A DNA stretch of 64,000 nt from a virus (Duplodnaviria > Heunggongvirae > Uroviricota > Caudoviricetes). The stretch lies in the IMG/VR virus record IMGVR_UViG_3300025858_001097; one strand, 5' to 3'. The translations under genes were made by a program, and so were the position numbers. Below are positions 8,601 to 28,000 of this stretch, piece by piece (position 1 is the stretch's first letter; each line of letters begins with the position of its first letter). The notes under the pieces are model-generated. The model did no database searches. It was not told the DNA's origin and saw only the letters and a program-made list of their open reading frames with translations.

Positions 8601-9372
8601 TGGTGTTATATGCTGACAAATTGGATATATTATGCCAATTTCCATTAGCTATAGATGTTATTCCTGTGTATATGCCAAAAAATTCAGGATTCCCCCATTC
8701 CTCTATTTTTAATATACCACCATTCCAACTATTTAACCAGTATCCTAAATCTTGACCGTTACCGTCAACATCGTTTATTGTAAAACCTGTTATCGTTCCT
8801 AAATCTGTTATACTGGCGCTACAACATCCACTATCAGGATATGTTTCACCTGTAAAAGTCCATAATCTTGTTGCTCCACCATATCCACCATCCAATCCAG
8901 ATGTACCAGATGAACCAAAACCAGATGTACCACTTGATCCTGTTAAACCACTAGTGCCTGAAGATCCTGTTTCACCGCTACTTCCACTTGTCCCTGAAGT
9001 GCCGCTCGTACCACTAGTTCCTCTGCCGCTTGTTCCACTTGTGCCGCCAGTGCCACTTGTGCCTCCAGTTCCACTAGTTCCACCTGTTCCGTCTCTACCA
9101 CTACTTCCGTTTGTTCCGTCTCTGCCACTCGTACCGCTGGTTCCATCTGCTCCGCTTGATCCAAAGAAAACTCCATCAACACCCGATGTACCATCTTTAC
9201 CAGATGTGCCGGAAGATCCAGATGCTGAAGTTCCTCCAGTGGTTATATAATGCCACGTGCAATCTTCAAATTTTTCCCATAAACCTACTAAATCTCTACC
9301 GAGGTATATATGACCGGTATCTGGACAACCAATGTCATTAGGATTTATAAGCTGGATTTTTTTGAAACTCAT
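5602..9372 (-). CDS. collagen-like fibre protein 1
   Basis: 1256 aa. It has the conserved N-terminal MSFKKIQLI(N/D)P..IG.P..GHIYLG domain shared with the genes at 15766 and 30764, and two Gly-X-Y (G-T-S / G-S-S) blocks. The C-terminal half carries YadA-head / Hep_Hag-like 14-residue repeats (NTAIG..AL..TTG). Confidence 0.8.
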   Translation of the reverse strand: MSFKKIQLINPNDIGCPDTGHIYLGRDLVGLWEKFEDCTWHYITTGGTSASGSSGTSGKDGTSGVDGVFFGSSGADGTSGTSGRDGTNGSSGRDGTGGTSGTGGTSGTGGTSGTSGRGTSGTSGTSGTSGSSGETGSSGTSGLTGSSGTSGFGSSGTSGLDGGYGGATRLWTFTGETYPDSGCCSASITDLGTITGFTINDVDGNGQDLGYWLNSWNGGILKIEEWGNPEFFGIYTGITSIANGNWHNISNLSAYNTNGNLVEGKQYIISFLPAGGQGQSGTSGSSGVDGNFYGTSGTSGKDGNFLGSSGTSGSGSSGTSGSGSPGSSGTSGTSGIGSSGTSGLSYGTSGSSGTSGFLPLIGDNLEVIFRDTGATYGYNTDSGFTFDPDTNVLTLMSSTLRYANGSEGEDKILKSDANGYSSWINIMTGSTDVMDRTFDLTISASTLSVVPYANKKGSDPLYAYFYITGNTTTLKPSYTNPIALDGVLNTAGVNLYTSSDIPNLSTELNINPTGWTLGTNWVNSGGGIYTHSAGALSAISTTITATSGRRYLISWTVGGASTYTFKSEVYAYVGTVKSNPKQNIIITSADLTANTTGSVTVQIEVPSGASGTISDISIKELDPSTAAIRAPLIHTTVTGIGLEARSAFTPNNLGVGTNSLRFSATGSTSNTAFGASALENLTYGYSNTAIGTNSLKNITTGVFNLAVGTESLYTSTTGDYNVALGPLALRLLTYGYSNTAVGHSALNKLTTGSENIGIGLGSGFNLTTGTSNVIIGVYAGSLISTAANNTLIGYNAAYNLSSYNNVAIGYTSLRLATTGGANVAIGSNAGSDITTGNDNTIVGHSAAGGSTGGYNTVLGQNAGVYQPSYSVTGRTNLTTDSYLTLLGRGASKDSTSALTNSTAIGYDTKVMESNSVVVGNYDIRKTEIRGNEEVLRFDTLELDSFTNSALTSGTSWSATGDMALTGDKGTYTHSTGVGSITQTSANFARSILPNRWYRLNYSFVHSAGTIITGFINSSFLGYAYELIFTQDVSKTYTFYIKTPATAVGDFTINMASTYTSGTGIVTIDDISFREVTGGDLFVNNKITGGGASVFYQLDPANTGNTIHFLDTKNDITDSGVTLLSIRNSGNTRVDINSEGMSNFYGGHSTTDIDKKGNINAYESTNSNNLSVIHLQTSGNTDKAFTTLRGNFITNQNLVDSGNLTNFTGLTDTTINFPTIGSPGYKLERMAKISVYDDALGNYYEGWIPLYTYLEAP
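8322..9237 (-). repeat. Gly-X-Y collagen-like 9-bp coding repeats (two blocks) of fibre protein 1
   Basis: GGN-ACN-AGN periodicity; coordinates approximate. Confidence 0.7.
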
Positions 9373-11759: not shown

Positions 11760-14700
11760 TATATTTTTTTAATTTTTAGAAAATAATATAATTTTGTTAT
11801 ATCAGTCGCAGAATTGACATAAAATTCTATCAAATCTCCGGATGTAATGTTTGTTGACCAACTCGCGAGAGAATAATCACTATTTTTTATTTGATTCGTT
11901 AATGTTGGATAATTTCCTGCCGTTATTCCTGTAAATATCGGATAATCAGAGTAATTACTTTTTCTAATATCAACTGCGCAACTCCCAGAAATACTTGCAA
12001 ACATTGTCCAACTATACATGACACAATCATAATTCATTTGTTTAAACCCCTTTGAACCAGTTGTTATAACATTTGATCCATTATCGATTATGAAACCTAT
12101 TGTATCATATTCTGTTGAACTAACGCCTGAACTACCAGAGTTTCCACTGGAACCACTGGTGCCAGAACTACCCGGAGATCCAGTTCCTGATGTTCCACTG
12201 GTGCCAGAACTACCCGGAGATCCAGTTCCTGATGTTCCACTGGTTCCGCCAGTTCCACTAGTTCCACCACTACCTGTTAAACCACTAGTTCCTGATGTTC
12301 CACTAGTCCCGCCTACACCACTCGTGCCACTAGTACCACTGATACCTGAAGTACCTGAAGTTCCACTACTACCTTGCGCTCCACTAGTGCCGCTAGTTCC
12401 TCCTGTACCACTGGTACCACTGATACCTGAAGTACCTGAAGTTCCACTACTACCTTGCGCTCCACTAGCGCCGCTAGTTCCTCCTGTACCACTGGTCCCT
12501 GAAGTGCCTGACGTTCCCGATGTGCCTGAAGTGCCGCTTGTTCCTGATGAACCATCTCTTCCACTACTTCCACTGGTTCCTGATGTCGGTGAATTGGTTT
12601 GATAATATGTATTACCAGAACTATCTACAACTAGATATCTAGATAAACCTGAAGTTGATGTTATTCCAGATATAACTAAAGTATTTGTTACCAATTTACC
12701 ATTACCATCAACAGACATAACATTACCATCTATGCCGTTTTGAATTTCAAGTACTGTATCCGAATCTGAGTTTGAACCTCTCTTGATAGTAAGAGCCCCC
12801 AATGTTGAATTCGTCAATATTTCTGGAACACCTGTTGAATTATTATAAGCTATTTGAAGATTGACTGTTGATAATCCAATACCGCCCATACCAATCACAT
12901 CACCAAATTTTGAAACCAATAAAAATTTAGCAGTGGATGGATCTGTTAAATTTGTACAATTACTCTGAACTGTTAAAATACCTATTAATATAGCATCTGT
13001 TTGAAAATTAGAAAATGTAACAAATGATTCAGTTAACGCATTGGATAAAGCCGTTGCAAAATCAGAATATACTGTTTGACCATATTGAATTCTAAATTTT
13101 CCATTTTGAGTCAAAAATATTCTCTGATTAGTTGATTGTTTTGCTGGCGATCCTACCAAAGTAACAACACCACCGTCATCCCAATAATTGGGTATCACTT
13201 GTGTCCTATCTGTATCCGAACCGCCTAATTGTGTTCTATATTGGAAAGTTGTAGGACTTTGTGATGATATACTAATACTACTTGGATTCAATACACTATT
13301 CGAAAAACCAATACCCAAACCCCACAATTTACCACCAGTAGTATTAAATGTCAAACCAGTATTTGGTGATGGATATATTCCCTGATTAATCAAATTAATA
13401 GGTGTCCATACATCTCTAAGTTGAGATAATGGTGAAACATCTAAATCAGGTTGATCCAACGAATAAAGCAAATATGATTTAGTTGGATGGGCTAATTTGC
13501 CCAAAAATATAGATTGTCTTCTATTTGTAGGTGATAATTCTGTTGAACTTTGAGCTATAGTTCCATCAGATTGTAAATAAACCCAAGTTTCCGTTGATGT
13601 TGATATATTTGTTGCTGTTATTCCAGTCTGACCTAAAAAATGAACATATAGAGCTGTTGGATTTATTGGATCAGTTGTATTATCAATAATCCAACCTTTA
13701 ACTTCACTTACATTAAATGTAATACCAGTTGTAGTGGGTGGATTAGAATTCAATGTTAATCCTGAAAAATAAAATAATCCAGTTGAATTAACATTACCCA
13801 ATAATATGTTTCTTTCAATATCGGTTAAACTAATTTCAGTATCTTCGTTCTTAACGTTAATATATATTTTTCCCGTTGTTGGTGAATTATCAATGACTTT
13901 ACCTATATAATTACTTCTTGATGAATATTGTAAACTTGATGATCCAACTATGAATCCGCCTGCTACTGTATCAGATAAATATAAATTATCACCATTTGTA
14001 TATCCCGATAAATTAAGATCATATATTTTTCCGTTTGTAATAACAAACCCTACACCACTTAAAGATATATCTTCTGATACCATTCCTAAAACAACATCAT
14101 CTAGATTACTTGCAATAGCCTTATCAACACAAGGTATTCCATTAATAGTCGAACCTCCAGTTAATTTAACGACAGTGGATTTCGTTAATACGTAAGAATT
14201 TGGATTATAGACTTTGATTACTAATTGTCCACCAAGAAGAATTGTTGATTGTAATGTATCAGATTGAGGATAATAAACTATACCTCCTTTATTATTATCA
14301 TAAACCATCCTGCCAGTAAGACCAGTAGACGGTAAAGTAATTCCTGTCCAAAAATCAAAATATCCAACATCAGATACATTGCCATCATGTAAAGATAATG
14401 TAGTTTCTGTGAATGTCAAACCCGATTGGGATATAGCACCATCTGGCGTTCCATCCGAAGTCAGCACTCTTGTTAAAGTTGGATATTGTACTGTTGTGAA
14501 ACCGTGACCTGAACTACCCGATGTGCCTGAAGAACCTGAAGTACCTGTCGTTCCGCTTGTTCCAGAAGTTCCTGATGTGCCTGAAGTGCCACTAGTTCCA
14601 GAAGAACCTGATGTTCCGCTGGTTCCACTAGAACCTGACGTTCCACTTGTTCCTGAAGTGCCACTAGTTCCAGAAGTGCCTGATGAACCATCTTGTCCAG

Positions 14701-15766
14701 AAGTTCCGCTAGTCCCGATAGTTCCTGAAGTACCTGAAGAACTTGAAGTTCCACTAGTTCCAGAAGTACCACCAGTTCCACTAGTTCCACTACTACCTTG
14801 TTTTCCAGAAGTACCACTTGTTCCACTAGTTCCATCGGTACCACTTGTTCCACTACTACCAAGAAAACTTCCATCTTTTCCACTAGTTCCACTACTACCA
14901 AGAAAACTTCCATCTTTCCCAGATGAACCACTAGTGCCGTCAGCACCAACTCCTCCTGTTCCGAAAGGAACATATGATATTAAATAACTTTCATTATTTG
15001 TTAGACTACCATTCGAGCTAATATCTGTAACTCCACTAATTTGATAAACATATAAATATGGAGTCGTGTTTATAGTAATACCACTTATTATATTATATAA
15101 TCCAAATATTGAGGGGTTATTGTGCAATTCTATTTTTAACATGCCGCTTGTCCAAGTATCCAGCCAATTGCTTTGATCAACATTATCTGCATCAACTTGA
15201 CTTATTCTAAAATATTCTGTAGCACTAAAGTGATCATTTCCGCTGTAGAAATATTTTGAAATTGGTATTGGTTGTGTCGAATCATATACCCATCTTCTAG
15301 ATGCTCCACCATATCCTGAGAATCCACTAGTTCCGCTACTACCAAAAAAATCTCCATCTACTCCCGAAGATCCACTTGTTCCAGTAAAACCACTAGACCC
15401 ACTAGACCCACTAGTACCTTTTCCGCTAGTTCCACTGGTTCCAGTTGTACCACTGGATCCTGTTTTTCCGCTAGTTCCACTAGTTCCTTCTTTTCCACTT
15501 GTTCCGCTCGATCCATCCTTTCCGCTACTTCCCGAGAAACCACTGGTTCCACTTGATCCGAAAAAACTTCCATTCAATCCATCCTTACCAGAAGATCCAC
15601 TTGTTCCAGCCGTTCCACTTAAAGTAATACCAGATGCTATATAAGTTATAGTTCCATCGGATTCTTTTTGCCATAAACCATAGTCATCGTGACCTAGATA
15701 AATAAAACCAACCTCGGGATTACCAATAACTGTTGGATCAATTAATTGTAATTTCTTAAAACTCAC
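11759..15766 (-). CDS. collagen-like fibre protein 2
   Basis: 1335 aa. The N-terminal domain MSFKKLQLIDPTVIGNPEVGFIYLG is conserved and there are three Gly-X-Y blocks. The track start appears to be GTG, whereas its paralogues use ATG. Large beta-rich central domain. Confidence 0.8.
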   Translation of the reverse strand: MSFKKLQLIDPTVIGNPEVGFIYLGHDDYGLWQKESDGTITYIASGITLSGTAGTSGSSGKDGLNGSFFGSSGTSGFSGSSGKDGSSGTSGKEGTSGTSGKTGSSGTTGTSGTSGKGTSGSSGSSGFTGTSGSSGVDGDFFGSSGTSGFSGYGGASRRWVYDSTQPIPISKYFYSGNDHFSATEYFRISQVDADNVDQSNWLDTWTSGMLKIELHNNPSIFGLYNIISGITINTTPYLYVYQISGVTDISSNGSLTNNESYLISYVPFGTGGVGADGTSGSSGKDGSFLGSSGTSGKDGSFLGSSGTSGTDGTSGTSGTSGKQGSSGTSGTGGTSGTSGTSSSSGTSGTIGTSGTSGQDGSSGTSGTSGTSGTSGTSGSSGTSGTSGSSGTSGTSGTSGTSGTSGTTGTSGSSGTSGSSGHGFTTVQYPTLTRVLTSDGTPDGAISQSGLTFTETTLSLHDGNVSDVGYFDFWTGITLPSTGLTGRMVYDNNKGGIVYYPQSDTLQSTILLGGQLVIKVYNPNSYVLTKSTVVKLTGGSTINGIPCVDKAIASNLDDVVLGMVSEDISLSGVGFVITNGKIYDLNLSGYTNGDNLYLSDTVAGGFIVGSSSLQYSSRSNYIGKVIDNSPTTGKIYINVKNEDTEISLTDIERNILLGNVNSTGLFYFSGLTLNSNPPTTTGITFNVSEVKGWIIDNTTDPINPTALYVHFLGQTGITATNISTSTETWVYLQSDGTIAQSSTELSPTNRRQSIFLGKLAHPTKSYLLYSLDQPDLDVSPLSQLRDVWTPINLINQGIYPSPNTGLTFNTTGGKLWGLGIGFSNSVLNPSSISISSQSPTTFQYRTQLGGSDTDRTQVIPNYWDDGGVVTLVGSPAKQSTNQRIFLTQNGKFRIQYGQTVYSDFATALSNALTESFVTFSNFQTDAILIGILTVQSNCTNLTDPSTAKFLLVSKFGDVIGMGGIGLSTVNLQIAYNNSTGVPEILTNSTLGALTIKRGSNSDSDTVLEIQNGIDGNVMSVDGNGKLVTNTLVISGITSTSGLSRYLVVDSSGNTYYQTNSPTSGTSGSSGRDGSSGTSGTSGTSGTSGTSGTSGTGGTSGASGAQGSSGTSGTSGISGTSGTGGTSGTSGAQGSSGTSGTSGISGTSGTSGVGGTSGTSGTSGLTGSGGTSGTGGTSGTSGTGSPGSSGTSGTSGTGSPGSSGTSGSSGNSGSSGVSSTEYDTIGFIIDNGSNVITTGSKGFKQMNYDCVMYSWTMFASISGSCAVDIRKSNYSDYPIFTGITAGNYPTLTNQIKNSDYSLASWSTNITSGDLIEFYVNSATDITKLYYFLKIKKI
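12046..12616 (-). repeat. Gly-X-Y coding repeat block (C-terminal) of fibre protein 2
   Basis: 9-bp periodicity; approximate bounds; further blocks at about 14566-14956 and 15331-15622. Confidence 0.65.
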
Positions 15767-15820: not shown

Positions 15821-16561
15821 TTACATTGTCGATGATATTATGTTACAAACAACATCCTCGTAAACTTCATAAAATATATAAACTAGCCCGTCTCCACCAG
15901 CTCCAGGAACAGAAGCGTTTCCTGTTGTACCGTAAGCGCCACCTCCACCTCCGCCAGCTTGACGTCCATTGCCACCGAATAAAATTCCAGATGCTCCATT
16001 ACCACCATTGCCCCCATATTGATTTCCACCATTTCCACCAGCACCACCTACTACTCCGCCATTTCCACCTTTACTACCATTTTGTTCTGTTCCGGCTCCG
16101 CCTCCGCCGCCACCTCCACGAAGACTGACTCCACCAGCGCCACCATCGCCTCCATTGTAAGTAGCGTTATTTTCACCCCCTGTGCCTCCTACAGATCCAA
16201 CACCACCAGCTCCACCAGCAACAGCTCTATTAACTCCTGTACCACCTCCACCAACAACTAAATTTGATGAATAATCTCCAACTTGACTTAATGATACATA
16301 ACTATCACCTCCATTAATAACACTATTATTACCACCAGTACCAACAACTATTTTCATAGTTGTTGGAAGATTTGATGTGTAAGAGAACATGGCACTTCCG
16401 CCGCCTCCACCTCCTCCGCCTCCAGTGCTTGCTGCTCCTAAGGATCCTCTACCACCTCCCCCGATAACGTAAATGGTTAATCCCGTAGTTCCTTGAGGGA
16501 CCTGTCGATAATAAGTTCCAGGTGTATCATACGTTAAAGTATCAGCTGGGATTGAATTCAT
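15821..16561 (-). CDS. glycine-rich protein
   Basis: Long GGxGG runs. The track ORF start at 16648 overlaps the upstream gene; an internal Met at 16559-16561 (M30) sits just after the upstream stop, so the gene likely starts there. Confidence 0.55.
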   Translation of the reverse strand: MNSIPADTLTYDTPGTYYRQVPQGTTGLTIYVIGGGGRGSLGAASTGGGGGGGGGSAMFSYTSNLPTTMKIVVGTGGNNSVINGGDSYVSLSQVGDYSSNLVVGGGGTGVNRAVAGGAGGVGSVGGTGGENNATYNGGDGGAGGVSLRGGGGGGGAGTEQNGSKGGNGGVVGGAGGNGGNQYGGNGGNGASGILFGGNGRQAGGGGGGAYGTTGNASVPGAGGDGLVYIFYEVYEDVVCNIISSTM

Positions 16562-16575
16562 ATTAATTATTTTTT

Positions 16576-17415
16576 TTATGTTCCTGTCAAAGTAACGACT
16601 AATTGATTGACAGTCCCTGACGCAGAAGCTATATACAAGGCTAACCAATCCCCAGCAGAAACGCTAGATCCAGTTTTTCCGCTTGCTCCACCCGTTGTTG
16701 CTACTATATCCGATCCAAACAAACTCGATGTAGATCCAATAGCTCCATAATATATATTAAAAGTGGCACTCGTATTATTTTGAACATAAGCGTTAGCTAC
16801 AGTCGGAGCATAAGACGCATTTAATCTGGGGCCTAATATAACTCCAGGTCCCGGCGAAGACACTACCCAAGTAAAACTTCTTTCGGGGTATGTGCCAGAT
16901 GTGCCTGATGAACCAGGACTACCAACGCCAGATGTTCCTGATGAACCAGGACTACCAACGCCAGATGTGCCACTTGTTCCGCTTGTTCCAGTAGTTATAT
17001 TAGTTACTTCTTTCACAACATTTCCATCCAATACCAATTTTGTACCGTTATCAGCTACAGTATCAACATTTGTCATAGTGAGAGTCGAACCAGTCATCCA
17101 TATATTAGGAATATAAGATGTATTTGTCGCTGAATCCCAATAAAAATCTGGATCTGTAGCAAATGAATTATCTATAGTCTGCCATGTTCCAACTCCATTA
17201 GCATCTGAAGTTAAAACATATCCATTGGATTGTGATCCGTCCACTATTCTAATAGTGCCGCCAGAAACAACAATTTTTTGGTCTATCGACCAAGCAGCAG
17301 ATGTTACACCAACACCAATTCTTTTATTGGTTTTGTCAATCATAACAACATCCTCTAACATTAAAGATGTGTTACCAGTTTGAGTATATTCTGTATAAAA
17401 TTTGGTTTGTGACAT
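16576..17415 (-). CDS. small collagen-motif protein (279 aa)
   Basis: Central GTSGTSGTSGVGSPGSSGTSGVGSPGSSGTSG flanked by beta-rich domains; contains a 33-nt tandem duplication. Confidence 0.6.
   Translation of the reverse strand: MSQTKFYTEYTQTGNTSLMLEDVVMIDKTNKRIGVGVTSAAWSIDQKIVVSGGTIRIVDGSQSNGYVLTSDANGVGTWQTIDNSFATDPDFYWDSATNTSYIPNIWMTGSTLTMTNVDTVADNGTKLVLDGNVVKEVTNITTGTSGTSGTSGVGSPGSSGTSGVGSPGSSGTSGTYPERSFTWVVSSPGPGVILGPRLNASYAPTVANAYVQNNTSATFNIYYGAIGSTSSLFGSDIVATTGGASGKTGSSVSAGDWLALYIASASGTVNQLVVTLTGT
16895..16971. repeat. 33-nt tandem direct repeat (2 full units plus a partial third)
   Basis: ccagatgtNcctgatgaaccaggactaccaacg appears twice and is then restarted; it encodes VGSPGSSGTSG twice. 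Confidence 0.7.
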
Positions 17416-17453
17416 TTAAAAATTTCTATTTTTACTATATATAATTTTTTTTG

Positions 17454-18638
17454 TTATGGAAAACATACAGCAACCGGTGTGCTTTTATTTGTAACTGAAT
17501 TTATTCCTAATTCTCCAAAAGTATTTTCCCCCCAAGACCAAGCTTTATTATTTTTATCTAAAGCCAAAGTATTATAACCACCGCTTATGAAATTGAAAGT
17601 ATGATTTCCACAGACAGCGACCGGAGTTGATACACTTCCAGACGACGTGTTCGCGCCTAACTGTCCGTCGTTATTCCATCCCCAACACCACGCTTTTCCG
17701 TGATTATCTATCGCCATAGAATGATAATTACCAGCTTCTATATCGCAAAATGTATGACCTCCACAAACAGCCACCGGCGTACTTCTATTAGTTGATGTAT
17801 TATCTCCCAAAGTACCAACATTGAAATTTGACCCCCATGCCCAAGCTTTTCCATGATTGTCTATCGCTAATACGTGATGTTGTCCACAAGATATTTGACA
17901 AAATGTATGCGCTCCGCAAACAGCCACTGGTGTACTTCTATCTGTGGAAATATTATTACCTAAACATCCATACCCATTGTATCCCCATCCCCAAGCTTTG
18001 CCATGATTGTCTACGGATGACGAATGACGTTGTCCGCAATCTATTAGACAGAATGTATGAGTCCCGTAGACTGCAATTGGTGTGCTTTTACATACCACAG
18101 TGTTATCTCCCAATTGTCCATAATTATTATCCCCCCATGACCACAATTTACCATTATATCCTAATCCTAAAGTGTTATGACCTTCACTAGTATATCTTCC
18201 TCCTACTTTTATATAACAAAAAGTATGATCCCCGCAAACAGCCACTGGTATAGATTTTCCATTGGTAGTATTATCTCCCAATTGTCCATAACTATTATTC
18301 CCCCAAGTCCAAGCTTTCCCGTCGGTATCTATGGCTGCGCTGTGTATCCCAGTGTCTATGGCAATAAAATTGCGATTACCAAAAACGGCTCGTGGAATAC
18401 ATTTATCACCGTGTTCATTAATGCCTAATTGTCCATAACTATTATCTCCCCAAGTCCAAGCTTTGTTATAAACATCTAAAGCTATGCTATTAAAAGTTCT
18501 ACCAACAATACTTACAAAATAATCAGTTGATCCAGAATCTGTTAAATAAATTAAACAAGGAGACGATATTTCATACGCTATTTTACTATTTCGTAAAACT
18601 ATTCTATAAATGGCCATAAAAAACAGATTTTTTATCAT
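17454..18638 (-). CDS. RCC1-repeat beta-propeller protein
   Basis: At least six WxWGxNxYGQLG repeats. Confidence 0.7.
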   Translation of the reverse strand: MIKNLFFMAIYRIVLRNSKIAYEISSPCLIYLTDSGSTDYFVSIVGRTFNSIALDVYNKAWTWGDNSYGQLGINEHGDKCIPRAVFGNRNFIAIDTGIHSAAIDTDGKAWTWGNNSYGQLGDNTTNGKSIPVAVCGDHTFCYIKVGGRYTSEGHNTLGLGYNGKLWSWGDNNYGQLGDNTVVCKSTPIAVYGTHTFCLIDCGQRHSSSVDNHGKAWGWGYNGYGCLGNNISTDRSTPVAVCGAHTFCQISCGQHHVLAIDNHGKAWAWGSNFNVGTLGDNTSTNRSTPVAVCGGHTFCDIEAGNYHSMAIDNHGKAWCWGWNNDGQLGANTSSGSVSTPVAVCGNHTFNFISGGYNTLALDKNNKAWSWGENTFGELGINSVTNKSTPVAVCFP

Positions 18639-18662
18639 TTTTATATATAAAAAATCTGTTTT
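18620..18662 (-). terminator. A-tract/T-tract flanked hairpin between the epimerase and RCC1 genes; the loop carries TATATAT and the RCC1 start codon
   Basis: aaaaaacagatttttt / aaaaaatctgtttt form a perfect stem of about 14 bp with a 15-nt loop atcatttttatatat. It fills the whole intergenic spacer. Confidence 0.45.
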
Positions 18663-18683
18663 CTTAAAAACGAAATAATAGGA

Positions 18684-19568
18684 TTATATTAGTTTTTTAT
18701 AATATTCTGCTGTTTTTCGCAAACCTTCCTCCAAAATTGTTACGGGCGTCCAAGATAAAATGTCTGATGATTTTTTAAAATCAATATTAACAGATTCAAA
18801 ATTTTTACCGTTTTCTTTGAATATTATTTTTGAATTTGTTTTTATAACTTTCAATGTGGTATTAGCTAATTCTTTTATTGATGTAAGTGTTTGATTTCCA
18901 ATATTTAATACAGTTTCAGTAGTTTCTGTATTCATAAATTTTATAAAAACATCCAAAAAGTCGTCTATGTAACAAAAAGAATCTATTTGATTACCATCTC
19001 CAAAAATTATTAAATCCTCATTTTTTAAAGATTTCATTATAAATTGCGGTATAACTCGCGAATCTCCAACTGCCATATTCGGACCATATATACTTTTTAG
19101 TCTTGATATTTTTACTTTTGTTGAAAATTTCTTTCTATATTCACTACAAAGAGTTTCAGCTACTCTCTTTCCTTCTGTATAACAAGAATTTATGCCAGTG
19201 TGATCATATTCGAAAACTCTTACTGTTGAAGAATGCATTATTGGAATATCCAATTTTGTAGCTAATTCTAACGCATTTCTTGTTCCATAAATATTGGTTT
19301 CTAATGTTTTTAGAGGATCTTTGCGATAATGATCTGGGGCGGCAGGGCTTGCCAAATTATATATTTGATTAATATCCGATATGTTTATTTCCTTACGTAT
19401 ATCATGATTTATTAAATGAAAATTTTCATTTTTTGTGAAATTGATGACATTATTTTTGGAACTGGTTGAAAAATCATCCAAGCAATAAACCGTGTTGCCT
19501 TGATATAACAAACTCTTACAAAGATTAGAACCTATAAAACCGCTACCTCCTAAAACTAAAATTTTCAT
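18684..19568 (-). CDS. UDP-glucuronate decarboxylase (UDP-xylose synthase, UXS/ArnA-type extended SDR)
   Basis: GGSGFIGSNL Rossmann motif. IYNLASPAAPDHYRKDPLKTLETNIYGTRNALELA and YTEGKRVAETLCSEY closely match UXS1 signature segments. Confidence 0.75.
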   Translation of the reverse strand: MKILVLGGSGFIGSNLCKSLLYQGNTVYCLDDFSTSSKNNVINFTKNENFHLINHDIRKEINISDINQIYNLASPAAPDHYRKDPLKTLETNIYGTRNALELATKLDIPIMHSSTVRVFEYDHTGINSCYTEGKRVAETLCSEYRKKFSTKVKISRLKSIYGPNMAVGDSRVIPQFIMKSLKNEDLIIFGDGNQIDSFCYIDDFLDVFIKFMNTETTETVLNIGNQTLTSIKELANTTLKVIKTNSKIIFKENGKNFESVNIDFKKSSDILSWTPVTILEEGLRKTAEYYKKLI

Positions 19569-19571
19569 AAT

Positions 19572-20507
19572 TTAACAACTCATATATTTTGACAATTTTT
19601 TATCTTTGAATTTTCCATCCGGATCTTTATATAAATAAGGTGTCCAAAATCCAAATTCATTAACAATTAAAAACATACCATATCTTTTGGCTATATTATT
19701 TCTGTAACGAAAATCTTTATATGAAGCAAGACTTTCTGGATTGCCCATATAAGGCTTTCCTTCATTTAAGACGTATCTATTCATCATTATTTTTCTAGAT
19801 TTACCCTTCAATTTTTCTAAGTGATAAGAAGATATATCATCTATTTTTTCTATGCTTAATCTGCGACGGAGCGGACAAGCCATTCCGCATTTTGGGCAGA
19901 ATTGTTCCATCTGCTCACGATAATCTTTGCGTGTGCGTTTCCACCAACCATGTTCAACTTCCCAACCATCGGGTCCATCATACAACATAGCGAAAGCTGC
20001 GGCCATTTCGCAGAAATAAGCCCCCTTTGGATTAATAGAAGCACTCCAAGATTCCTGCGCCCAACAATGATCTATATAATACCACATATCATCTTTATCC
20101 TTAATCACTTCATCTATAGCCACAAGAGCTGGATGATGATATATGTCATCTCGAGTGTGATCGTTTATAAAAATATGACCGAATGTTCTTACAATAACTT
20201 CACGATAATGTTCGTATCCTTTTGGAAGAGTTGTCCAAAGACCTAATTGTTCCTTTGGAAATTTTGATGCTGCATAATCACAAAATTTTTCAAACTCTGG
20301 ATGAAGGATTGGTTCGCCTCCTTGAAAACCAACCATTTTTTTAAAACCTTCAAAAGAATCTATTGCTTCTTTGAATTTTTCAAATGAAAGATAGAAAACT
20401 TTTCCATGACCGACAAATCTTGTACAATTACTACATAAATTACGACAACAATTTGTAATTTCGATTTGAATTGTATCTTGATCCCTCAAATTTATCATAA
20501 TCCCCAA
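19572..20507 (-). CDS. radical SAM enzyme with a C-terminal Cys cluster
   Basis: CRNLCSNC (CxxxCxxC) and a GGEPILHPE motif; C-terminal CPKCGMACP cluster. Confidence 0.6.
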   Translation of the reverse strand: MGIMINLRDQDTIQIEITNCCRNLCSNCTRFVGHGKVFYLSFEKFKEAIDSFEGFKKMVGFQGGEPILHPEFEKFCDYAASKFPKEQLGLWTTLPKGYEHYREVIVRTFGHIFINDHTRDDIYHHPALVAIDEVIKDKDDMWYYIDHCWAQESWSASINPKGAYFCEMAAAFAMLYDGPDGWEVEHGWWKRTRKDYREQMEQFCPKCGMACPLRRRLSIEKIDDISSYHLEKLKGKSRKIMMNRYVLNEGKPYMGNPESLASYKDFRYRNNIAKRYGMFLIVNEFGFWTPYLYKDPDGKFKDKKLSKYMSC

Positions 20508-21181
20508 GATTTTTTTCTATCTATGAGTCTTACTACTTTTTCTTCGACTGGCATGGCATAATTATGATATAAGAAGCTGAGATAATCCATGTCATATTTA
20601 GCGAAGAAATCTTTAAACATCACGAATTTTAATCCAAATTTTGCGATGTTTCTTGACAACACATAATCGTCAATAAGACTTCTTGGAGTTACTCCATTGT
20701 CCGATTCTGATTTTGTTGGGAATATATTATTAGCTGCTTCATCGGGAGTTAGATCATCTAAAGGTCTCCATAGATCTATGCACCAATCGCTGGCTATTGT
20801 AAACCAATTGCAACTTCCGATATTCCTACCATCTCTTAGAAAATATTCATCGTAACGCCAACGAAGTGATGCCATATCCATCGCTGAGTGAGCAACCGTG
20901 TCTTTTGACATTTGTGTAGTTATATCAAATATATCTGGATGTATTAAAGCATCACAATCTACATAAATATTCCAATCATTTTTCATTTCTTTTCCGAGTT
21001 CGTATATTTGCATTTTTTCATATGTTATATACCACTCTGGAAATTTACGCTCTTTTATGACATAAAAATCAGCTCCTATTTTATGAGCGTATTTTTTTAT
21101 ATATGGATATGTAATATCTGTTATATCCTTTGAATATTCATCGTTAATATTCAAAGTGAAAATTGTTTTCTTTAATCTCAC
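20495..21181 (-). CDS. putative GT-A fold nucleotide-sugar transferase
   Basis: IYVDCDALIHPD DxD-like motif in a context resembling nucleotide-diphospho-sugar transferases; weak. Confidence 0.4.
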   Translation of the reverse strand: MRLKKTIFTLNINDEYSKDITDITYPYIKKYAHKIGADFYVIKERKFPEWYITYEKMQIYELGKEMKNDWNIYVDCDALIHPDIFDITTQMSKDTVAHSAMDMASLRWRYDEYFLRDGRNIGSCNWFTIASDWCIDLWRPLDDLTPDEAANNIFPTKSESDNGVTPRSLIDDYVLSRNIAKFGLKFVMFKDFFAKYDMDYLSFLYHNYAMPVEEKVVRLIDRKKSWGL

Positions 21182-21280
21182 TGTAAAAGATTTTTTGATT
21201 TATATAAGAAAAAAAATTGAAAAGTTTTATTTTATATTTTGATTTTTAATATAATATGATTAATTATATTAATATCGATT

Positions 21281-21652
21281 TTATGCATAAGCATCGTCGT
21301 CAACAGTTATTAGTGTATTATCTACAGTAACATAAGTAGTATCTACTAGTACATGAAAACGAGCTTCACACGCACCGCCAAGTAAATTAATAAATTTATC
21401 TGTTGCTCCGAGTAAAGTATCACCCAGAGTAGTTCCACTCAAGCTTATTATTATTGTATCTCCATACAATGTTACACCGGTGTCCCCAGCCAAATCAGAT
21501 ATGAATTTTTGACCTATTAATGTTGTTGATTTATCAGCATCTCCTATTAAGTCATCAATTTCTTTTTGACCGGAAAGAGAGCTTGTATATTTGGTACCAC
21601 CCTCAATAACAATTTTATCTGCAGTAACATCATATAAATTACAAGTAGCCAT
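21281..21652 (-). CDS. hypothetical beta-rich protein (123 aa)
   Basis: ORF track; repetitive LxGDT motifs. Confidence 0.45.
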   Translation of the reverse strand: MATCNLYDVTADKIVIEGGTKYTSSLSGQKEIDDLIGDADKSTTLIGQKFISDLAGDTGVTLYGDTIIISLSGTTLGDTLLGATDKFINLLGGACEARFHVLVDTTYVTVDNTLITVDDDAYA

Positions 21653-21669
21653 ATACTTTATATTTTATT

Positions 21670-22008
21670 TTATGATGTTAATAAAACAGGCAAAATTGTA
21701 ACCGTGCCGATAGCTGGTGTTGTTGGTTGACCAACAGTGTCAACAAGTCTTAACTCATGATAATAACTACCAGCTGTAATTCCAGTTGTATCAGCAGGTT
21801 CTAATGTCACTGTAACATTCTTACCAGACAATGTTATACCAAAGCCACCAGACGTTTTTAAAATAGCCTGTGATCCAGTAGCTTCTTCTGTAGTGGACAT
21901 AGCCCATTCGGCTGTTCCGCCAGTAACAGTAGATACATCCTCGATATAAAACACAATTTGTCTGTAGTTACCTTTCCATGTTGTAAAATCTTGATTTGTT
22001 TTTCCCAT
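21670..22008 (-). CDS. hypothetical protein (112 aa)
   Basis: ORF track; promoter-like box at 22031-22040. Confidence 0.45.
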   Translation of the reverse strand: MGKTNQDFTTWKGNYRQIVFYIEDVSTVTGGTAEWAMSTTEEATGSQAILKTSGGFGITLSGKNVTVTLEPADTTGITAGSYYHELRLVDTVGQPTTPAIGTVTILPVLLTS

Positions 22009-22067: not shown

Positions 22068-25000
22068 TTATATTTCAGTGTTGTTAGCAGAAACATAGGA
22101 GTATTCAATGACATCAACAGTATATTTCAATTGAAGTTTATAACTTGGCGATGGATCCCATCCAGTAGCACTCCTTAAATTATTTTTTAATAATAGATAC
22201 GGTTTACTGCTATATATTAGAGCTTCCGCATCTATATCATTAGGACCTATTTGTCCTTGTGTATCTATCGATGCGTGACGACCCGGAGATGGTGTTTCTG
22301 AATTATACTTAACCCAATACCCCGAATGTTGAACTGTTTTAGTATCTGTTACATAATTAGTATAGCTACCAGTTTGATCTACAAAGACGTTGAAACGATA
22401 TTCTCTCATCGCTGCCAATGAATAATCGATTGCTGTCATTTGTGAAGTAGTGCCAGTATCCATTAAGTGATCCATATAGTAGTAACAATTAACCTTAACA
22501 GAGAATCCACTAGTTCCATTTCCACCTGTAACTCCGTGTGTTGTGGATAAGTCTATTTTACTTTGTGAAGCCCAAGCTGTGGCCCAACTAAACGGAGGTA
22601 TATCATTTACATAATAATACGTTACTCCAATTCCAGAGGTTCCACTACTGCCTGTTATTCCTGATGTTCCACTAGTTCCTGAAGTGCCACTAACGCCACT
22701 AGTTCCACTGGTGCCATCATTTCCAGATGTTCCGCTTGTTCCTCTAGCTCCAGATGTTCCGCTAGTTCCACTACTGCCTTGTTTTCCAGATGTTCCACTA
22801 GTTCCACTAGTGCCACCTGTTCCACTGGTTCCTGATGTACCTCCAGTTCCACTAGTTCCACTACTACCTGTTATTCCAGCGGTTCCGCTAGTTCCTGATG
22901 TACCGCCAGTGCCGCTAGTTCCACTACTGCCTTGTTTTCCAGATGTTCCACTAGTTCCACTTGTACCGCCTGTGCCTGAAGTACCACCAGTGCCATCATG
23001 TCCAGATGTTCCGCTTGTTCCACTACTACCATCATTTCCAGATGTTCCACTTGTACCGCCAGTACCATTTGTTCCTGATGTACCTCCAGTTCCACTAGTT
23101 CCACTACTACCTTGTCTTCCAGAAGTACCACTGGTTCCACTTGTACCGCCTGTACCATTTGTTCCTGATGTACCTCCAGTTCCACTGGTTCCGCTACTAC
23201 CATCATTTCCAGATGTGCCTGAAGTACCACCTGTTCCGCTAGTTCCAGAAGTACCACTACTACCATCATTACCAGATGTTCCACTGGTTCCGCTACTACC
23301 ATCATTTCCAGATGTTCCGCTAGTTCCACTACTACCATCATGTCCGGATGTTCCACTAGTTCCACTAGTTCCACCTGTGCCATTTGTTCCTGATGTACCA
23401 CCAGTTCCACTAGTTCCACTACTGCCTTGTTTTCCAGAAGTACCACTTGTGCCACTAGTTCCACCCGTACCATTTGTTCCTGATGTACCACCAGTTCCAC
23501 TGGTTCCACTACTTCCATCATGTCCTGATGTGCCTGAAGTTCCTCCAGTACCACTAGTTCCACTACTGCCATCATGTCCAGATGTTCCTGAAGTTCCACC
23601 CGTGCCTGAAGTACCGCTTGTACCACCAGTGCCATCATGTCCAGAAGTACCACTAGTTCCACTACTGCCATCGTGACCAGACGTACCTGAAGTACCACTT
23701 GTTCCACTAGTTCCTGATGTACCACTTGTTCCTGATGTACCACTACTGCCATCGTGACCAGACGTACCTGAAGTACCACTTGTTCCGCTTGTACCACTAC
23801 TTCCATCATGTCCTGATGTACCTGAAGTTCCTCCAGTACCTGAAGTTCCACTACTTCCATCATGACCAGATGTGCCTGCTGTTCCTGAAGTACCACCAGT
23901 ACCATTGGTTCCTGAAGTTCCGCCCGTTCCTGATGTACCACTACTACCATCATTTCCAGATGTTCCACTAGTTCCACCAGTTCCGTTTGTTCCTGAAGTT
24001 CCACCAGTTCCACTAGTTCCACTACTCCCTGAAGTACCGTTTGTTCCAGAAGTGCCTGAAGTGCCTCCAGTTCCACTTGTACCACTACTACCTTGTTTTC
24101 CAGAAGTACCACTTGTACCACTACTACCAGAAGCACCTGAAGTGCCTGAAGTTCCTCCAGTTCCACTAGTTCCACCTGTTCCATTTGTTCCTGATGTCCC
24201 ACCAGTTCCACTAGTCCCACTACTTCCTGTTAAACCTGAAGTTCCGCCAGTTCCTGAAGTTCCTCCTGTTCCCGAGGTACCACTACTACCTTGTTTTCCA
24301 GAAGTTCCGCTAGTTCCTGAAGTTCCTCCTGTTCCGCTGGTACCTGAAGTTCCACCAGTGCCACTAGTTCCACTACTACCATCGTGTCCAGATGTTCCAC
24401 TTGTTCCACTAGTTCCACTACTTCCTGAAGTTCCTCCAGTTCCACTAGTTCCACTGCTTCCAGAAGTTCCACTAGTCCCAGAAGTACCACTAGTACCTCC
24501 AGTACCACTAGTTCCACTACTACCTTGTTTTCCAGAAGTTCCGCTGGTTCCTGAAGTACCGCTTGTGCCGCCTGTTCCGCTAGTACCTGAAGTACCACCT
24601 GTACCACTAGTTCCACTACTGCCATCGTGTCCCGAAGTACCACTAGTACCTCCAGTTCCGCTAGTTCCACTACTACCATCATGTCCAGATGTTCCACTAG
24701 TTCCACTGCTACCTGAAGTTCCTGAAGTACCATTTGTTCCACTTGTACCTGAAGTTCCACTTGTACCACTACTACCTTGTTTTCCAGAAGTACCATTTGT
24801 ACCACTTGTACCACTACTACCTGAAGTTCCACCAGTTCCAGAAGTACCGCCAGTTCCATTTGTTCCTGAAGTGCCTCCAGTTCCGCTAGTTCCACTAGTT
24901 CCACTAGTTCCATCATGACCCGATGTTCCCGAAGTTCCACCTGTACCAGATGTTCCTGATGTCCCGCCTGTTCCGCTTGTTCCACTACTTCCATCATGAC

Positions 25001-28000
25001 CCGATGTTCCTGAAGTGCCACCCGTGCCTGAAGTACCACCTGTACCAGATGTTCCTGATGTCCCGCCTGTTCCGCTTGTTCCACTACTTCCATCATGACC
25101 CGATGTTCCTGAAGTGCCACCCGTGCCTGAAGTACCACCTGTGCCACCAGTTCCACTAGTTCCACTACTTCCAGAAGTTCCACTAGTTCCACTACTTCCA
25201 GAAGTTCCGCTTGTTCCACTACTACCATCGTGGCCAGAAGTTCCACTAGTTCCAGCAGTTCCACTTGTGCCAGAAGTGCCACCTGTTCCGCTTGTACCAC
25301 TACTTCCATCATGTCCAGATGTACCTGATGTTCCACTTGTTCCGGAAGTACCACCTGTTCCACTTGTACCACTACTTCCATCATGTCCAGATGTACCTGA
25401 TGTTCCACTTGTTCCTGCTGTACCTGATGTTCCACTTGTACCGCCTGTACCTGAAGTTCCACTACTACCTGATGTTCCACTCGTGCCACTAGTTCCCGAA
25501 GTACCACTACTACCTTGTTTTCCAGAAGTACCACTTGTACCACTAGTTCCACTACTTCCTGAAGTTCCACCAGTTCCAGAAGTACCACCTGTTCCATTTG
25601 TACCTGATGTACCACTTGTCCCGCTAGTTCCGCTAGTCCCACTACTACCATCATGTCCAGATGTTCCAGAAGTTCCAGAAGTACCACCTGTTCCGTTAGT
25701 TCCTGAAGTACCACCTGCTCCACTAGTTCCACTACTTCCATCATGACCTGAAGTTCCAGAAGTACCACTTGTCCCGCTAGTTCCGCTAGTCCCACTACTA
25801 CCATCATGTCCAGATGTTCCTGAAGTTCCAGAAGTACCACCTGTTCCACTAGTTCCACTACTTCCATCACGACCTGAAGTTCCTGAAGTGCCGCCTGTTC
25901 CGTTAGTTCCTGAAGTACCACCTGTTCCACTAGTTCCACTAGTTCCGCTTGTTCCACTACTACCACTAGTACCGCCAGTTCCGCCTGTACCAGAAGTACC
26001 ACTTGTTCCCGATGTGCCACTGCTACCATCATGACCGGAAGTTCCACTAGTTCCACTTGTTCCACTAGTTCCACTACTACCATCATGTCCAGAAGTACCA
26101 CTAGTTCCTGAAGTACCACCTGTTCCACTAGTTCCTGAAGTGCCGCCTGTTCCACTTGTACCACTGCTACCATCAACGCCCGAAGTTCCAGAAGTTCCTC
26201 CTGTACCTGATGTTCCATTTGTCCCACTTGTGCCTCCAGTGCCTGAAGTACCACTACTACCAGATGTGCCTGAAGTTCCTCCAGTACCACTAGTTCCACT
26301 ACTACCTTGTTTTCCAGAAGTACCACTAGTTCCACTACTTCCAGAAGTTCCTGAAGTGCCAGAAGTTCCCCCAGTGCCACTTGTTCCTCCAATACCACTA
26401 GTTCCACTACTTCCAGAAGTTCCTGAAGTGCCAGAAGTTCCCCCAGTGCCACTTGTTCCTCCAATACCACTAGTTCCACTACTTCCATCATAACCACTTG
26501 TTCCCGAAGTTCCTCCCGTACCTGATGTTCCTGAAGTACCACCTGTACCACTAGTTCCACTACTTCCATCATGACCACTTGTTCCAGAAGTGCCACTGCT
26601 ACCACTTGTACCGCTTGTTCCGCCAGTACCAGAAGTGCCACCTGTTCCACTAGTTCCACTAGTACCGCTACTACCATCGTGTCCTGATGTACCACTTGTT
26701 CCTGAAGTTCCTCCAGTACCACTAGTTCCGCTAGTTCCTGAAGTTCCACTACTTCCATCGTGACCAGAAGTACCACTAGTTCCACTAGTTCCGTTTGTTC
26801 CTGAAGTTCCACCAGTTCCACTACTTCCTGTCGCACCTGATGTTCCAGAGGTTCCGCCGGCACCGCTAGTTCCTGATGTACCGCCAGTTCCACTAGTTCC
26901 ACTACTTCCTCCTGTACCTGATGTGCCACTAGTTCCAGAAGTTCCACTCGTACCACCAGTTCCACTAGTTCCACTACTACCTTGTTTACCGGAAGTACCA
27001 CTTGTACCACTACTTCCAGAAGTTCCCGAAGTGCCTGAAGTTCCTCCAGTACCACTTGTTCCTCCAGTACCACTAGTTCCACTACTTCCTGTTGCGCCAG
27101 AAGTTCCAGATGTTCCGCCTGTTCCAGATGTACCACTAGTTCCACCTGTTCCAGATGTACCGCTACTCCCATCGTGACCTGAAGTACCTGATGTACCTGA
27201 AGTACCACTTGTTCCTCCTGTTCCTGAAGTTCCTCCAGTTCCGCTAGTCCCACTACTTCCTGAAGTTCCGCTAGTCCCACTTGTTCCTGAAGTTCCACCT
27301 GTGCCATTTGTTCCACTAGTACCACTTGATCCTGATACTCCACTTGTTCCACTAGTTCCTCCAGTTCCACTAGTTCCACCTGTTCCACTAGTTCCAGAAG
27401 AACCAGACGTACCACTTGTTCCGCTAGTTCCCGAAGTACCACTACTACCTTTTGCGCCCGAAGTTCCACTAGTTCCAGATATACCACTAGTTCCACCTGT
27501 ACCTGATGTACCGCTCGTGCCGCCAGTTCCGCTAGTCCCGCTACTTCCACTTGTACCACTACTACCAGATGTTCCATTAGTTCCTGAAGTACCACCAGTG
27601 CCATTCGTGCCACTCGTACCTCCAGTTCCTGAAGTACCACTACTACCTGATGTTCCACTAGTTCCACTACTTCCAGAAGTTCCACTAGTTCCACTAGTTC
27701 CAGAAGTGCCACTGCTACCTGATGTACCGCTAGATCCAGAAGTACCACTAGTTCCTGATGTACCTGAAGTTCCACTTGTTCCTGAAGTACCGCCTGTTCC
27801 ACTAGTACCGCTACTTCCTTGGGCTCCACTAGTTCCACTGGTTCCACTTGTACCCCCAGTACCGCTTGTTCCTGATGTCCCGCCTGTTCCACTAGTTCCA
27901 CTACTACCTTGAGCCCCACTAGTTCCTGAAGTACCACTGCTACCTTGTGCTCCGCTGGTTCCACTTGTACCACCAGTTCCGCTAGTTCCACTACTACCTT

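Follow-up and report, generated by a model that had tools for sequence, protein, structure and literature searches.

The window (the whole 64,000-nt stretch analysed, from IMG/VR record IMGVR_UViG_3300025858_001097) carries a compact minus-strand cassette of three genes, encoding in order a glycosyltransferase (GT), a radical-SAM enzyme (rSAM), and an extended SDR related to UDP-glucuronate decarboxylase (UXS) (Table 1). An earlier note on this DNA had described a UXS-like ORF and a radical-SAM ORF (19572-20507) lying back to back; both are present as described, but the third gene, the GT directly upstream, had been missed. The GT stop overlaps the rSAM start (ATGA), and 3 nt separate the rSAM stop from the SDR start. 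For rSAM, translation most likely begins at the ATG at 20498 and not at the TTG at 20507. Overlap and spacing are observed, and one translationally coupled operon (21181-18684) is part of the best explanation of the locus. The triad recurs, with its gene order kept, in distant contigs at 55-63% identity. Scans of positions 17300-22300 found no terminators, and promoter candidates scored no better there than in shuffled sequences. Because the sole PADLOC similarity is a trivial one, between the rSAM N-terminus and pVip (E = 1e-3), assignment of the cassette to a known defence system was rejected.

Table 1. Features of the glycosylation cassette and its surroundings in the window
Feature	Coordinates	Strand	Remarks
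GT25-family glycosyltransferase	4880..5539	-	directly after the third collagen-like gene
Collagen-like gene 3	5602..9372	-	1256 aa
Collagen-like fibre protein 2	11759..15766	-	1335 aa; N-terminal domain common to the 2898-aa protein
Gly_rich_2 protein	15821..16648	-	presumed structural
279-aa protein with short GTS runs	16576..17415	-	presumed structural
RCC1-repeat protein	17454..18638	-	presumed structural
UXS-derived extended SDR	18684..19568	-	294 aa; GxxGxxG, Thr, and YxxxK kept; the Ser/Glu/Arg specific to UXS, the QTR Arg, and part of the active-site loop lost
Twitch-domain radical-SAM enzyme	19572..20498	-	308 aa; SAM cluster C18, C22, C25; putative auxiliary cluster C145, C163, C201, C204
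GT-A fold glycosyltransferase, GT8/GT34-like	20495..21181	-	228 aa; cassette gene 1; invariant D75-x-D77
Two small ORFs between fibre gene and GT gene	21281..22008	-	123 and 112 aa; no Pfam match
Giant collagen-like fibre protein	22068..30764	-	2898 aa, about 83% (G-T-S)n triplets; candidate acceptor

ORFs neighbouring the cassette share 73% protein identity with LR756501, the 735-kb huge phage Mahaphage, and related cassettes lie beside portal, coat, and baseplate genes. To judge from these protein matches, the source genome is that of a huge bacteriophage related to Mahaphage, and an origin in a giant eukaryotic virus was rejected; the parallel drawn earlier with the xylose-bearing fibres of giant viruses therefore serves as an analogy only. 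Megablast with 24 kb of the window found no match among phages, and neither did tblastn with a 707-aa neighbour protein. When rSAM and GT were compared by tblastn with 50,697 GenBank phage records, the cassette was not found in any cultured phage; the matches were one weak, partial one for rSAM and one of 36% for GT, the latter in an unannotated marine virus. The window also contains numerous other host-like metabolic genes.

The cassette does lie between Ser/Thr-Gly collagen-like genes, as had been reported, with (Gly-Thr-Ser)n genes on either side. The 2898-aa protein qualifies as collagen-like by its long uninterrupted G-X-Y repeats, with 2403 of the 2898 residues in runs of at least 5 triplets, and these repeats are atypical in that X is mostly Thr, Y is mostly Ser, and Pro makes up 0.7%. 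G-X-Y runs are shorter in the other two collagen-like proteins. The two small ORFs next to the giant fibre gene are called, with their order kept, on three independent contigs that bear an identical rSAM protein. As regards proteoglycan-type O-xylosylation, Ser-Gly dipeptides are plentiful in the fibres and acidic flanks are scarce (D 2.6%). The earlier note had called for a search for a UDP-glucose dehydrogenase (UGDH) and a xylosyltransferase: no scanned ORF of the window has a UGDH domain, and none of the scanned proteins matches a xylosyltransferase family in Pfam. With the UXS signature also gone (below), the supply of xylose for Ser O-xylosylation of the proteoglycan type, which had been suggested for these fibres, is not borne out.

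GT has a GT-A Rossmann-like fold and an invariant DxD metal/nucleotide-sugar motif (D75-x-D77), and matches no curated glycosyltransferase family in Pfam, NCBIfam, or PHROG. The domain of PBCV-1 A64R that glycosylates the capsid is its top structural neighbour, at about 9% identity and thus at the level of fold only; the xylosyltransferase XXT1 is also among the neighbours. No hydrophobic segment was seen on reading the 228-residue sequence.

The radical-SAM enzyme is recognizable by C18-x3-C22-x2-C25 and GGEP motifs that are invariant or nearly so in the alignment, although it barely passes the Pfam Radical_SAM model (PF04055; 29.9 against a cut-off of 29.5). Every top fold match is a radical-SAM enzyme, and the best by a clear margin are SpeY and BtrN, which are sugar or cyclitol dehydrogenases; the suggestion that the enzyme oxidizes or epimerizes a sugar is compatible with such a fold. 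PDB searches with a single sequence or a profile gave sub-significant N-terminal matches only, and no full-length homology to BtrN or SpeY was found (profile E about 0.1, confined to the N-terminal 70 residues). A C-terminal Cys cluster that had been noticed proved to be conserved, C201xxC204 being invariant in 33 homologues together with C145 and C163; C208 is not conserved. In BtrN, the twitch domain consists of a Cys, a beta-hairpin, a second Cys, and two more past helix alpha2', which together ligate an auxiliary [4Fe-4S] cluster through four Cys (PMC6231123). The AF2 model of rSAM has the same layout, with C142, a hairpin (E149-153/E156-158), C160, and a helix (187-200) with C198xxC201; these positions follow the 305-aa numbering of the rSAM alignment and the model, to which 3 is added for the 308-aa protein. 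In the model, the four extra invariant Cys are thus placed as for a putative auxiliary cluster. The CxxxCxxC motif begins at residue 18, with no domain resembling a RiPP recognition element ahead of it.

The third protein matches Pfam Epimerase at 1e-38, and human UXS1 chains are its best solved relatives (E = 4e-60; the next family follows at 2e-30), with 37% identity over 306 columns. By sequence, it is a descendant of UDP-glucuronate decarboxylases. Like the human and bacterial UXS (PDB 2B69/4GLL), it is an extended SDR with a GxxGxxG NAD site, an Asp ending beta2, and the triad Thr118, Tyr147, and Lys151 (UXS numbering), the last two within 'CY(T/D)EGKR'; in the SDR alignment, G7, G8, G10, G13, Y130, and K134 are conserved, and T115 is nearly invariant. 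It differs from these enzymes exactly at the positions specific to UXS. Ser119, Glu120, and Arg277 are described as invariant in UXS, where the Ser and Glu have roles in carboxylate binding, ring distortion, and C5 protonation; activity is reduced in the E120A mutant, and R277Q yields no more than traces of UDP-xylose (PMC3438964). In the SDR, 'STSEVYG' has become 'SSTVRVF' (S to V, E to R), and Glu120 is missing across the whole cassette clade, with R, K, N, D, or H instead. Arg277, which latches with Glu120 in UXS, is also lost, 'DDPQKRKPD' being aligned to 'KN-FESVNID' (R to V). From loop 119-144, 13-14 residues are deleted, and the full-length closing loops of UXS (119-144 and 268-277) are not retained as a pair. 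'NDGRVVSNF' of UXS is replaced by 'DSRVIPQF', and the conserved Arg of 'QTR', which we take from GalE and RmlB to be a diphosphate-binding residue, is now Asp ('Q-x-D'). The SDR scores 77.8 bits with NF008872 against a cut-off of 294, its top NCBIfam match is a dTDP-glucose dehydratase (111 against 365), and it falls far below the cut-off of every NCBIfam equivalog. The UXS-like identity first given to this gene thus stands as to ancestry and fails at the active site: the lost Ser, Glu, and Arg, the shortened loop, and the change in QTR argue that the SDR is a degenerate relative of UXS and not a bona fide UDP-xylose synthase.

GT and rSAM genes are adjacent in 63 non-redundant IMG/VR phage loci, in tailed phages of several morphotypes, and the two proteins remain 55-73% identical between phages that have unrelated structural proteins. 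The SDR gene is found in about 30 of these loci; missing from more than half, it is therefore not essential to the core chemistry. GT plus rSAM is the conserved core, and the SDR is accessory. Small Methyltransf_24 genes, which resemble sugar methyltransferases, are often inserted in the phage cassette or fused to it. Only 5 of the 63 loci have collagen-like ORFs alongside the cassette; fibre genes flank it in the window and in L004, L007, L009, and L043, and Ser/Thr-rich fibres do so in the clade with the window-type SDR. Several lineages have the cassette within structural or fibre modules, and in P22-like contigs it follows portal, a gene in the scaffold position (no Pfam match), and coat. 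Clustering at 90% identity leaves 553 rSAM and 1369 GT representatives; among representatives clustered at 50%, the rSAM profile matches 349 with E<=1e-30. Pfam, NCBIfam, and PHROG have no model devoted to either family.

Cellular homologues of rSAM (37-46% identity) are located in bacterial polysaccharide clusters. They adjoin a GT2 enzyme in 56 of 72 loci, which also hold NTP-transferases, FkbM methyltransferases, UGDH (9 loci), and UXS/ArnA-like SDRs. A canonical UXS lies beside or near a homologous rSAM in L018, L085/86, L105, and L111, and UGDH occurs together with ArnA/UXS-like decarboxylases in several clusters; the cassette may therefore plausibly be linked to sugars derived from uronates or pentoses. 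The bacteria that bear these homologues belong mostly to uncultured, often anaerobic lineages; cultured examples are Sporofaciens musculi WCA-9-b2, Desulfopila sp. IMCC35008, Brachyspira alvinipulli ATCC 51933, and Geomesophilobacter sediminis Red875. The idea that the C-terminal extension of the bacterial homologues hides a GT of the phage type was rejected (hhalign probability 0.13).

We propose that the operon serves to produce or modify a non-standard sugar carried by a glycoconjugate, an interpretation that we regard as about evenly balanced between right and wrong. A simple xylose pathway does not describe the cassette, which probably combines the building and the editing of a glycan for virion fibres. 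GT would transfer a sugar from a host nucleotide sugar. From a carbon of that sugar rSAM would abstract a hydrogen, with a putative auxiliary cluster, ligated entirely by Cys, taking up electrons in the manner of BtrN and SpeY, and the outcome could be conversion of a secondary alcohol to a ketone, epimerization, or decarboxylation. The SDR, with its NAD site and Thr/Tyr/Lys triad kept, its active site opened, and the QTR Arg lost, might then carry out keto-reduction or oxidation at C4; its substrate would not be UDP-GlcA and may be the sugar already transferred. In the source genome, the most likely acceptor would be the Thr/Ser-rich collagen-like fibre proteins on both sides. A more specific form of this proposal, which we offer tentatively and consider unlikely to hold in full, is that GT-rSAM pairs constitute a previously undescribed and widespread class of radical-SAM glycan editing, in phages and in polysaccharide clusters, in which a twitch rSAM edits the sugar on the acceptor after transfer and a UXS-derived SDR without the nucleotide-binding and decarboxylation residues finishes the job, here on virion fibres.

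Other targets for the same chemistry have to be weighed. The cassette might leave virion proteins alone and have an auxiliary or conversion role (receptor masking or superinfection exclusion, for example), acting on nucleotide sugars in solution or on glycans of the host envelope (LPS, capsule, or S-layer glycan). The strong conservation of GT and rSAM among phages with unrelated structural proteins is easier to reconcile with a shared substrate, either a small molecule or one from the host, than with virion proteins that differ from phage to phage, and the polysaccharide-cluster setting of the cellular homologues with their GT2 enzymes, the moron-like placement in the late operon of P22-like contigs, and the host-like metabolic genes of the window point the same way. 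Against this stand the small GT with no hydrophobic segment seen, the placing of the cassette, in several lineages, within modules of structural or fibre genes, and the Ser/Thr-rich fibres that flank it in the clade with the window-type SDR, and on balance we judge this alternative unlikely. Direct xylosylation, with the SDR as a working UDP-xylose synthase, GT as a xylosyltransferase acting on Ser/Thr of the (G-T-S)n fibres, and rSAM tailoring the xylose, is distinctly improbable: among solved structures UXS1 is the best homologue of the SDR by a wide margin, XXT1 is a structural neighbour of GT, and canonical UXS, UGDH, and ArnA/UXS-like decarboxylases do occur near homologous rSAMs, yet the SDR is optional in the cassette, has V/R/V at the UXS Ser119/Glu120/Arg277 and the shortened loop, falls well short of the NF008872 cut-off, and has no UGDH within the window to supply it.

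That rSAM modifies protein itself, by Ser/Thr oxidation as in anSME or by residue epimerization as in EpeE/YydG, with GT and SDR as independent neighbours, seems very unlikely to us, given the clear lead of SpeY and BtrN among its fold matches, a coupling to GT that looks obligate (the ATGA overlap in the window, 63 neighbouring pairs in other loci), homologues in bacteria placed among sugar-nucleotide genes, and an N-terminus free of any domain like a RiPP recognition element. Phages do use glycosyltransferases, and occasionally radical-SAM enzymes, in DNA hypermodification, and conservation across phage lineages would suit DNA as a universal substrate; even so, glycosylation and editing of modified phage bases as an anti-restriction measure would be a highly improbable role for a cassette that sits in late or structural regions, has no hydroxymethylase or other base-modification gene nearby (in the window and the related loci examined), and has bacterial homologues in polysaccharide clusters.

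Both halves of the proposed glycan-editing system have precedents, in virus-encoded glycosylation of virions and in the twitch radical-SAM sugar dehydrogenases of aminoglycoside antibiotic pathways. PBCV-1 A64R, the mycobacteriophage glycosyltransferases that act on capsid and tail, and Mimivirus fibre glycosylation resemble the cassette in having a soluble, virus-encoded GT-A enzyme near structural genes; we know of no radical-SAM enzyme in these systems. BtrN (butirosin) and SpeY (spectinomycin) have no significant sequence similarity to rSAM past the SAM-binding N-terminus and lack the roughly 100 additional conserved residues at its C-terminus; they belong to aminoglycoside pathways, whereas rSAM is partnered by a glycosyltransferase in phage and polysaccharide loci. 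BlsE, the radical-SAM cytosylglucuronate decarboxylase of blasticidin S, is a weaker structural match than either. The exosporium protein BclA of Bacillus is a collagen-like glycoprotein whose Thr-rich GXT repeats carry O-linked oligosaccharides made by dedicated sugar-biosynthesis genes; it shares with the fibres here the Thr-rich collagen-like repeats of a prokaryote, in BclA a scaffold for O-glycosylation, and differs in being non-viral and in relying on rhamnose and anthrose operons with other enzymes and no known radical-SAM enzyme. The novelty of the cassette is the combination of virion-type glycosylation with a twitch radical-SAM enzyme: in the full-text literature searched we found no earlier description of it, of a phage rSAM plus GT system, or of twitch radical-SAM enzymes in phages. 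If the chemistry is confirmed, a radical step would be added to glycoconjugate biosynthesis, one that could account for unusual sugars of phage fibres or of the surface glycans of bacteria, and the SDR would show clearly how a UXS scaffold can take on another function once its decarboxylase signature is lost. The automated JGI naming of these SDRs as 'UDP-glucuronate decarboxylase' is probably wrong for the cassette clade.

The radical-SAM gene (rSAM) and UXS-like extended SDR gene that an earlier note placed between collagen-like genes exist as described, on the evidence of ORF calls, Pfam matches, and G-X-Y counts (see table). Together with a GT-A glycosyltransferase gene (GT) that the note does not mention, they are predicted to form a three-gene operon: the GT stop codon TGA (20497-20495) and the rSAM start codon ATG (20498-20496) overlap as ATGA, and 3 nt separate the rSAM stop TAA from the SDR start ATG. 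Alignment with 32 homologues indicates that rSAM most likely starts at this ATG and not at the ORF limit.

Genes and gene groups of the window, with coordinates
Feature	Coordinates	Strand	Remarks
SDR	18684-19568	-	294 aa; ORF call and Pfam Epimerase 1e-38
rSAM	19572-20507 (ORF); probable true start ATG at 20498	-	308 aa; Pfam Radical_SAM
GT	20495-21181	-	immediately upstream of rSAM; GT-A fold by model
Giant collagen-like gene	22068-30764	-	2898 aa; 2403 residues in G-X-Y triplets
Second collagen-like gene	11759-15766	-	G-X-Y runs shorter than in giant gene
Third collagen-like gene	5602-9372	-	G-X-Y runs shorter than in giant gene
Second glycosyltransferase, GT25 family	4880-5539	-	Pfam Glyco_transf_25, E 4e-7; directly downstream of third collagen-like gene
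Other-frame ORFs in giant collagen-like gene	22684-28558	both	e.g., 24230-28558 (1442 aa)
Paralogous-family ORFs	38497-39951; 44038-45456		~470-485 aa
HNH/homing-endonuclease genes (three)	47253-47921; 57616-59268; 61385-62275
Host-like NAD-salvage/uptake block	30842-37541; 50487-52291
Peptidase/AMMECR1-type cargo ORFs	469-1587; 3362-3922; 39971-41467; 45585-46733; 52426-53574

The SDR is predicted to be derived from, but not to be, a UDP-xylose synthase/UDP-glucuronate decarboxylase (UXS). Its closest solved relatives are human UXS1 (hUXS1) chains (37% identity; E 4e-60, thirty orders of magnitude better than the next family). The hallmarks of UXS in the hUXS1 structure are Ser119, Glu120, and Arg277, the latter two invariant among UXS enzymes; the buried glucuronyl group is covered by loops 119-144 and 268-277, which a Glu120-Arg277 salt link holds in place, and all three mutants tested fell below wild-type activity, R277Q yielding only traces of UDP-xylose (PMC3438964). 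The window SDR lacks these defining features: STSEVYG of hUXS1 reads SSTVRVF (S119 to V, E120 to R), loop 119-144 is 13-14 residues shorter, and DDPQKRKPD is replaced by KN-FESVNID (R277 to V). SQTRAF has also become NQIDSF, exchanging for Asp the QTR arginine, which we take to be the diphosphate-binding residue of nucleotide-sugar SDRs (cf. GalE Arg231, RmlB). All NCBIfam equivalog scores lie far under cut-off, and the gene is thus unlikely to be the working UXS that had been proposed. Since GxxGxxG, the beta2 Asp, Thr, and YxxxK are kept, the protein should retain NAD-linked redox at a sugar carbon, but with its substrate changed and the closed decarboxylation pocket gone. In about 30 loci every cassette-linked SDR shows the same changes (R, K, N, D, or H for Glu; mostly Q-x-D/E), apart from the canonical UXS of related loci L018 and L085/86. 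JGI names cassette-clade SDRs (P0242-P0246 and P0258) "UDP-glucuronate decarboxylase" though the UXS catalytic signature is absent; this label is likely a systematic mis-annotation.

The rSAM carries GGEP and, as the earlier note recognized, CxxxCxxC (C18, C22, C25 in the 308-aa protein) plus a C-terminal Cys cluster; beyond the SAM-cluster cysteines, C142, C160, C198, and C201 are invariant in 33 homologues (305-aa numbering; +3 for the 308-aa protein). It narrowly passes the Pfam Radical_SAM threshold, belongs to no curated family by sequence, and has no significant PDB relative at that level. The folds nearest its AF2 model (pLDDT 91) are the twitch radical-SAM dehydrogenases SpeY (fold-match value 16.7; 229 residues aligned) and BtrN (13.3), followed by SuiB (11.2), the cytosylglucuronate decarboxylase BlsE (10.2), PqqE (10.2), EpeE (10.1), and anSME (9.3). 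In the model C142 precedes a beta-hairpin (149-153/156-158), C160 comes right behind it, and C198 and C201 sit where helix 187-200 ends (305-aa numbering). The arrangement is that reported for the twitch domain of BtrN (PMC6231123), whose Cys4-ligated auxiliary cluster is thought to be the electron acceptor in a two-electron oxidation, and the modelled rSAM conforms to the structural definition of a twitch enzyme.

The GT matches no curated family in Pfam, NCBIfam, or PHROG; just two membership features were found, a predicted GT-A fold (pLDDT 94) and DxD (D75-x-D77, invariant in 30 homologues). Its homologues number 1369 at ~60% identity and those of rSAM 553 at 55-73% (both 90%-identity clusters), and at 50% clustering the rSAM profile picks up 349 representatives with E<=1e-30. 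GT and rSAM adjoin in 63 non-redundant IMG/VR loci, about 30 of which include the SDR in varying position. The pair is sometimes split by homing endonucleases; members of one small gene family sit between GT and rSAM in L009, L018, L050, L051, L055, and L076, the L009 member being a NUMOD3-type homing endonuclease. A Methyltransf_24-type methyltransferase (~175 aa) is inserted in about 18 of the phage loci, or else is fused to rSAM; the window cassette has none. The fusion is at the rSAM C-terminus in some phages, with a separate gene in others (P0002, P0003, P0037; L007/L012). Phage cassettes sit in structural regions, near baseplate genes in L007 and, in a P22-like lineage, after portal, an unannotated gene at the scaffold position, and coat.

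The rSAM homologues of bacteria and archaea, usually 430-620 aa long and 37-46% identical, lie in polysaccharide clusters. GT2 accompanies them in 56 of 72 loci, extended SDRs in 43, and UGDH in 9, and FkbM methyltransferases, sugar nucleotidyltransferases, and RmlC are also among the neighbours. Several of the SDRs are informative: those in L105 and L111 are canonical UXS, and ArnA/UXS-like decarboxylases retaining the Ser-Glu and Arg signature occur in L129 and L141. These neighbours and the phage pairing suggest that the family is a sugar-pathway enzyme habitually partnered with a GT, with a recurrent link to uronate- or pentose-type chemistry. In the cellular homologues (contigs L099-L169) an additional 150-300 residues at the C-terminus form a domain without Pfam match, and a second, unrelated rSAM (~400 aa) often lies alongside. 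Gastranaerophilales-type MAGs repeatedly show a GT2-rSAM-SDR triad (SDR ~280 aa).

In our model the GT would draw on a nucleotide sugar of the host for the sugar that it transfers, the rSAM, as a twitch enzyme, would take a hydrogen off a sugar carbon (oxidation, epimerization, or decarboxylation), and the SDR, where present, would perform C4 keto-reduction or oxidation; the methyltransferase of other cassettes may O-methylate. A bulkier non-UDP substrate, e.g., an already transferred sugar, would be in keeping with the SDR's shortened lid, lost Glu-Arg latch, and Arg-to-Asp change. The best acceptor candidates in the window genome are the flanking (G-T-S)n fibres; in the giant gene X is mainly Thr, Y mainly Ser, and Pro just 0.7%. 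The GT25 family of the second glycosyltransferase also holds animal collagen galactosyltransferases. Collagen-like G/S/T-rich ORFs occur <=8 kb from the cassette in only 5 of 63 loci (the window, L004, L007, L009, and L043), all five with a window-type SDR (R/K replacing Glu120). This limited association weakens the fibre reading, and with the very strong conservation of GT and rSAM among phages with unrelated virion proteins and the moron-like cassette position in P22-like contigs, it keeps alive the alternative that host glycans or soluble substrates are acted on. Of the earlier proposal, a sugar pathway beside fibres thus stands, whereas genuine UDP-xylose synthesis and proteoglycan-style O-xylosylation do not. 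Full-text literature searches found no published description of the GT-rSAM cassette, and PADLOC, PHROGs, and NCBIfam hold no model specific to it. Virus or polysaccharide glycosylation is already known; what appears new is its combination with a putative radical-SAM editing enzyme and a putatively neofunctionalized UXS.

The very long other-frame ORFs of the giant collagen-like gene, among them P/V/L-rich ones on the plus strand, are almost certainly spurious, frame-shifted readings of the (GGT ACT TCT)-type repeat.

The window corresponds to JGI contig Ga0116247_10000325 (97 kb). Neighbouring ORFs share 73% identity with the 735-kb "uncultured phage" LR756501/LR756503, of the Mahaphage clade and predicted to infect Bacteroidetes (PMC7162821). 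Given this kinship, the homing endonucleases of HNH type, and a weak match to a head-tail adaptor, the giant-virus parallel once drawn is an analogy only. The 735-kb phage itself appears to lack the cassette: neither GT nor rSAM had a homologue there in sequence searches. The paralogous-family ORFs, without Pfam/PHROG match, are 73% identical to LR756501/LR756503 and match 14-15 places per genome, indicating a large family of paralogues, of which Cellulophaga phages carry weaker copies. The NAD block encodes an isochorismatase/nicotinamidase-like protein, a NadR-like NMN adenylyltransferase with AAA_28, a PnuC NMN transporter, a PEBP protein, and a complete TonB-dependent receptor (Plug and barrel), with PRPP synthetase and PPK2 farther along the window. 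Other cargo unusual in phage comprises an M42 aminopeptidase, AMMECR1, two M28-like peptidases, and a CarboxypepD_reg-domain protein.
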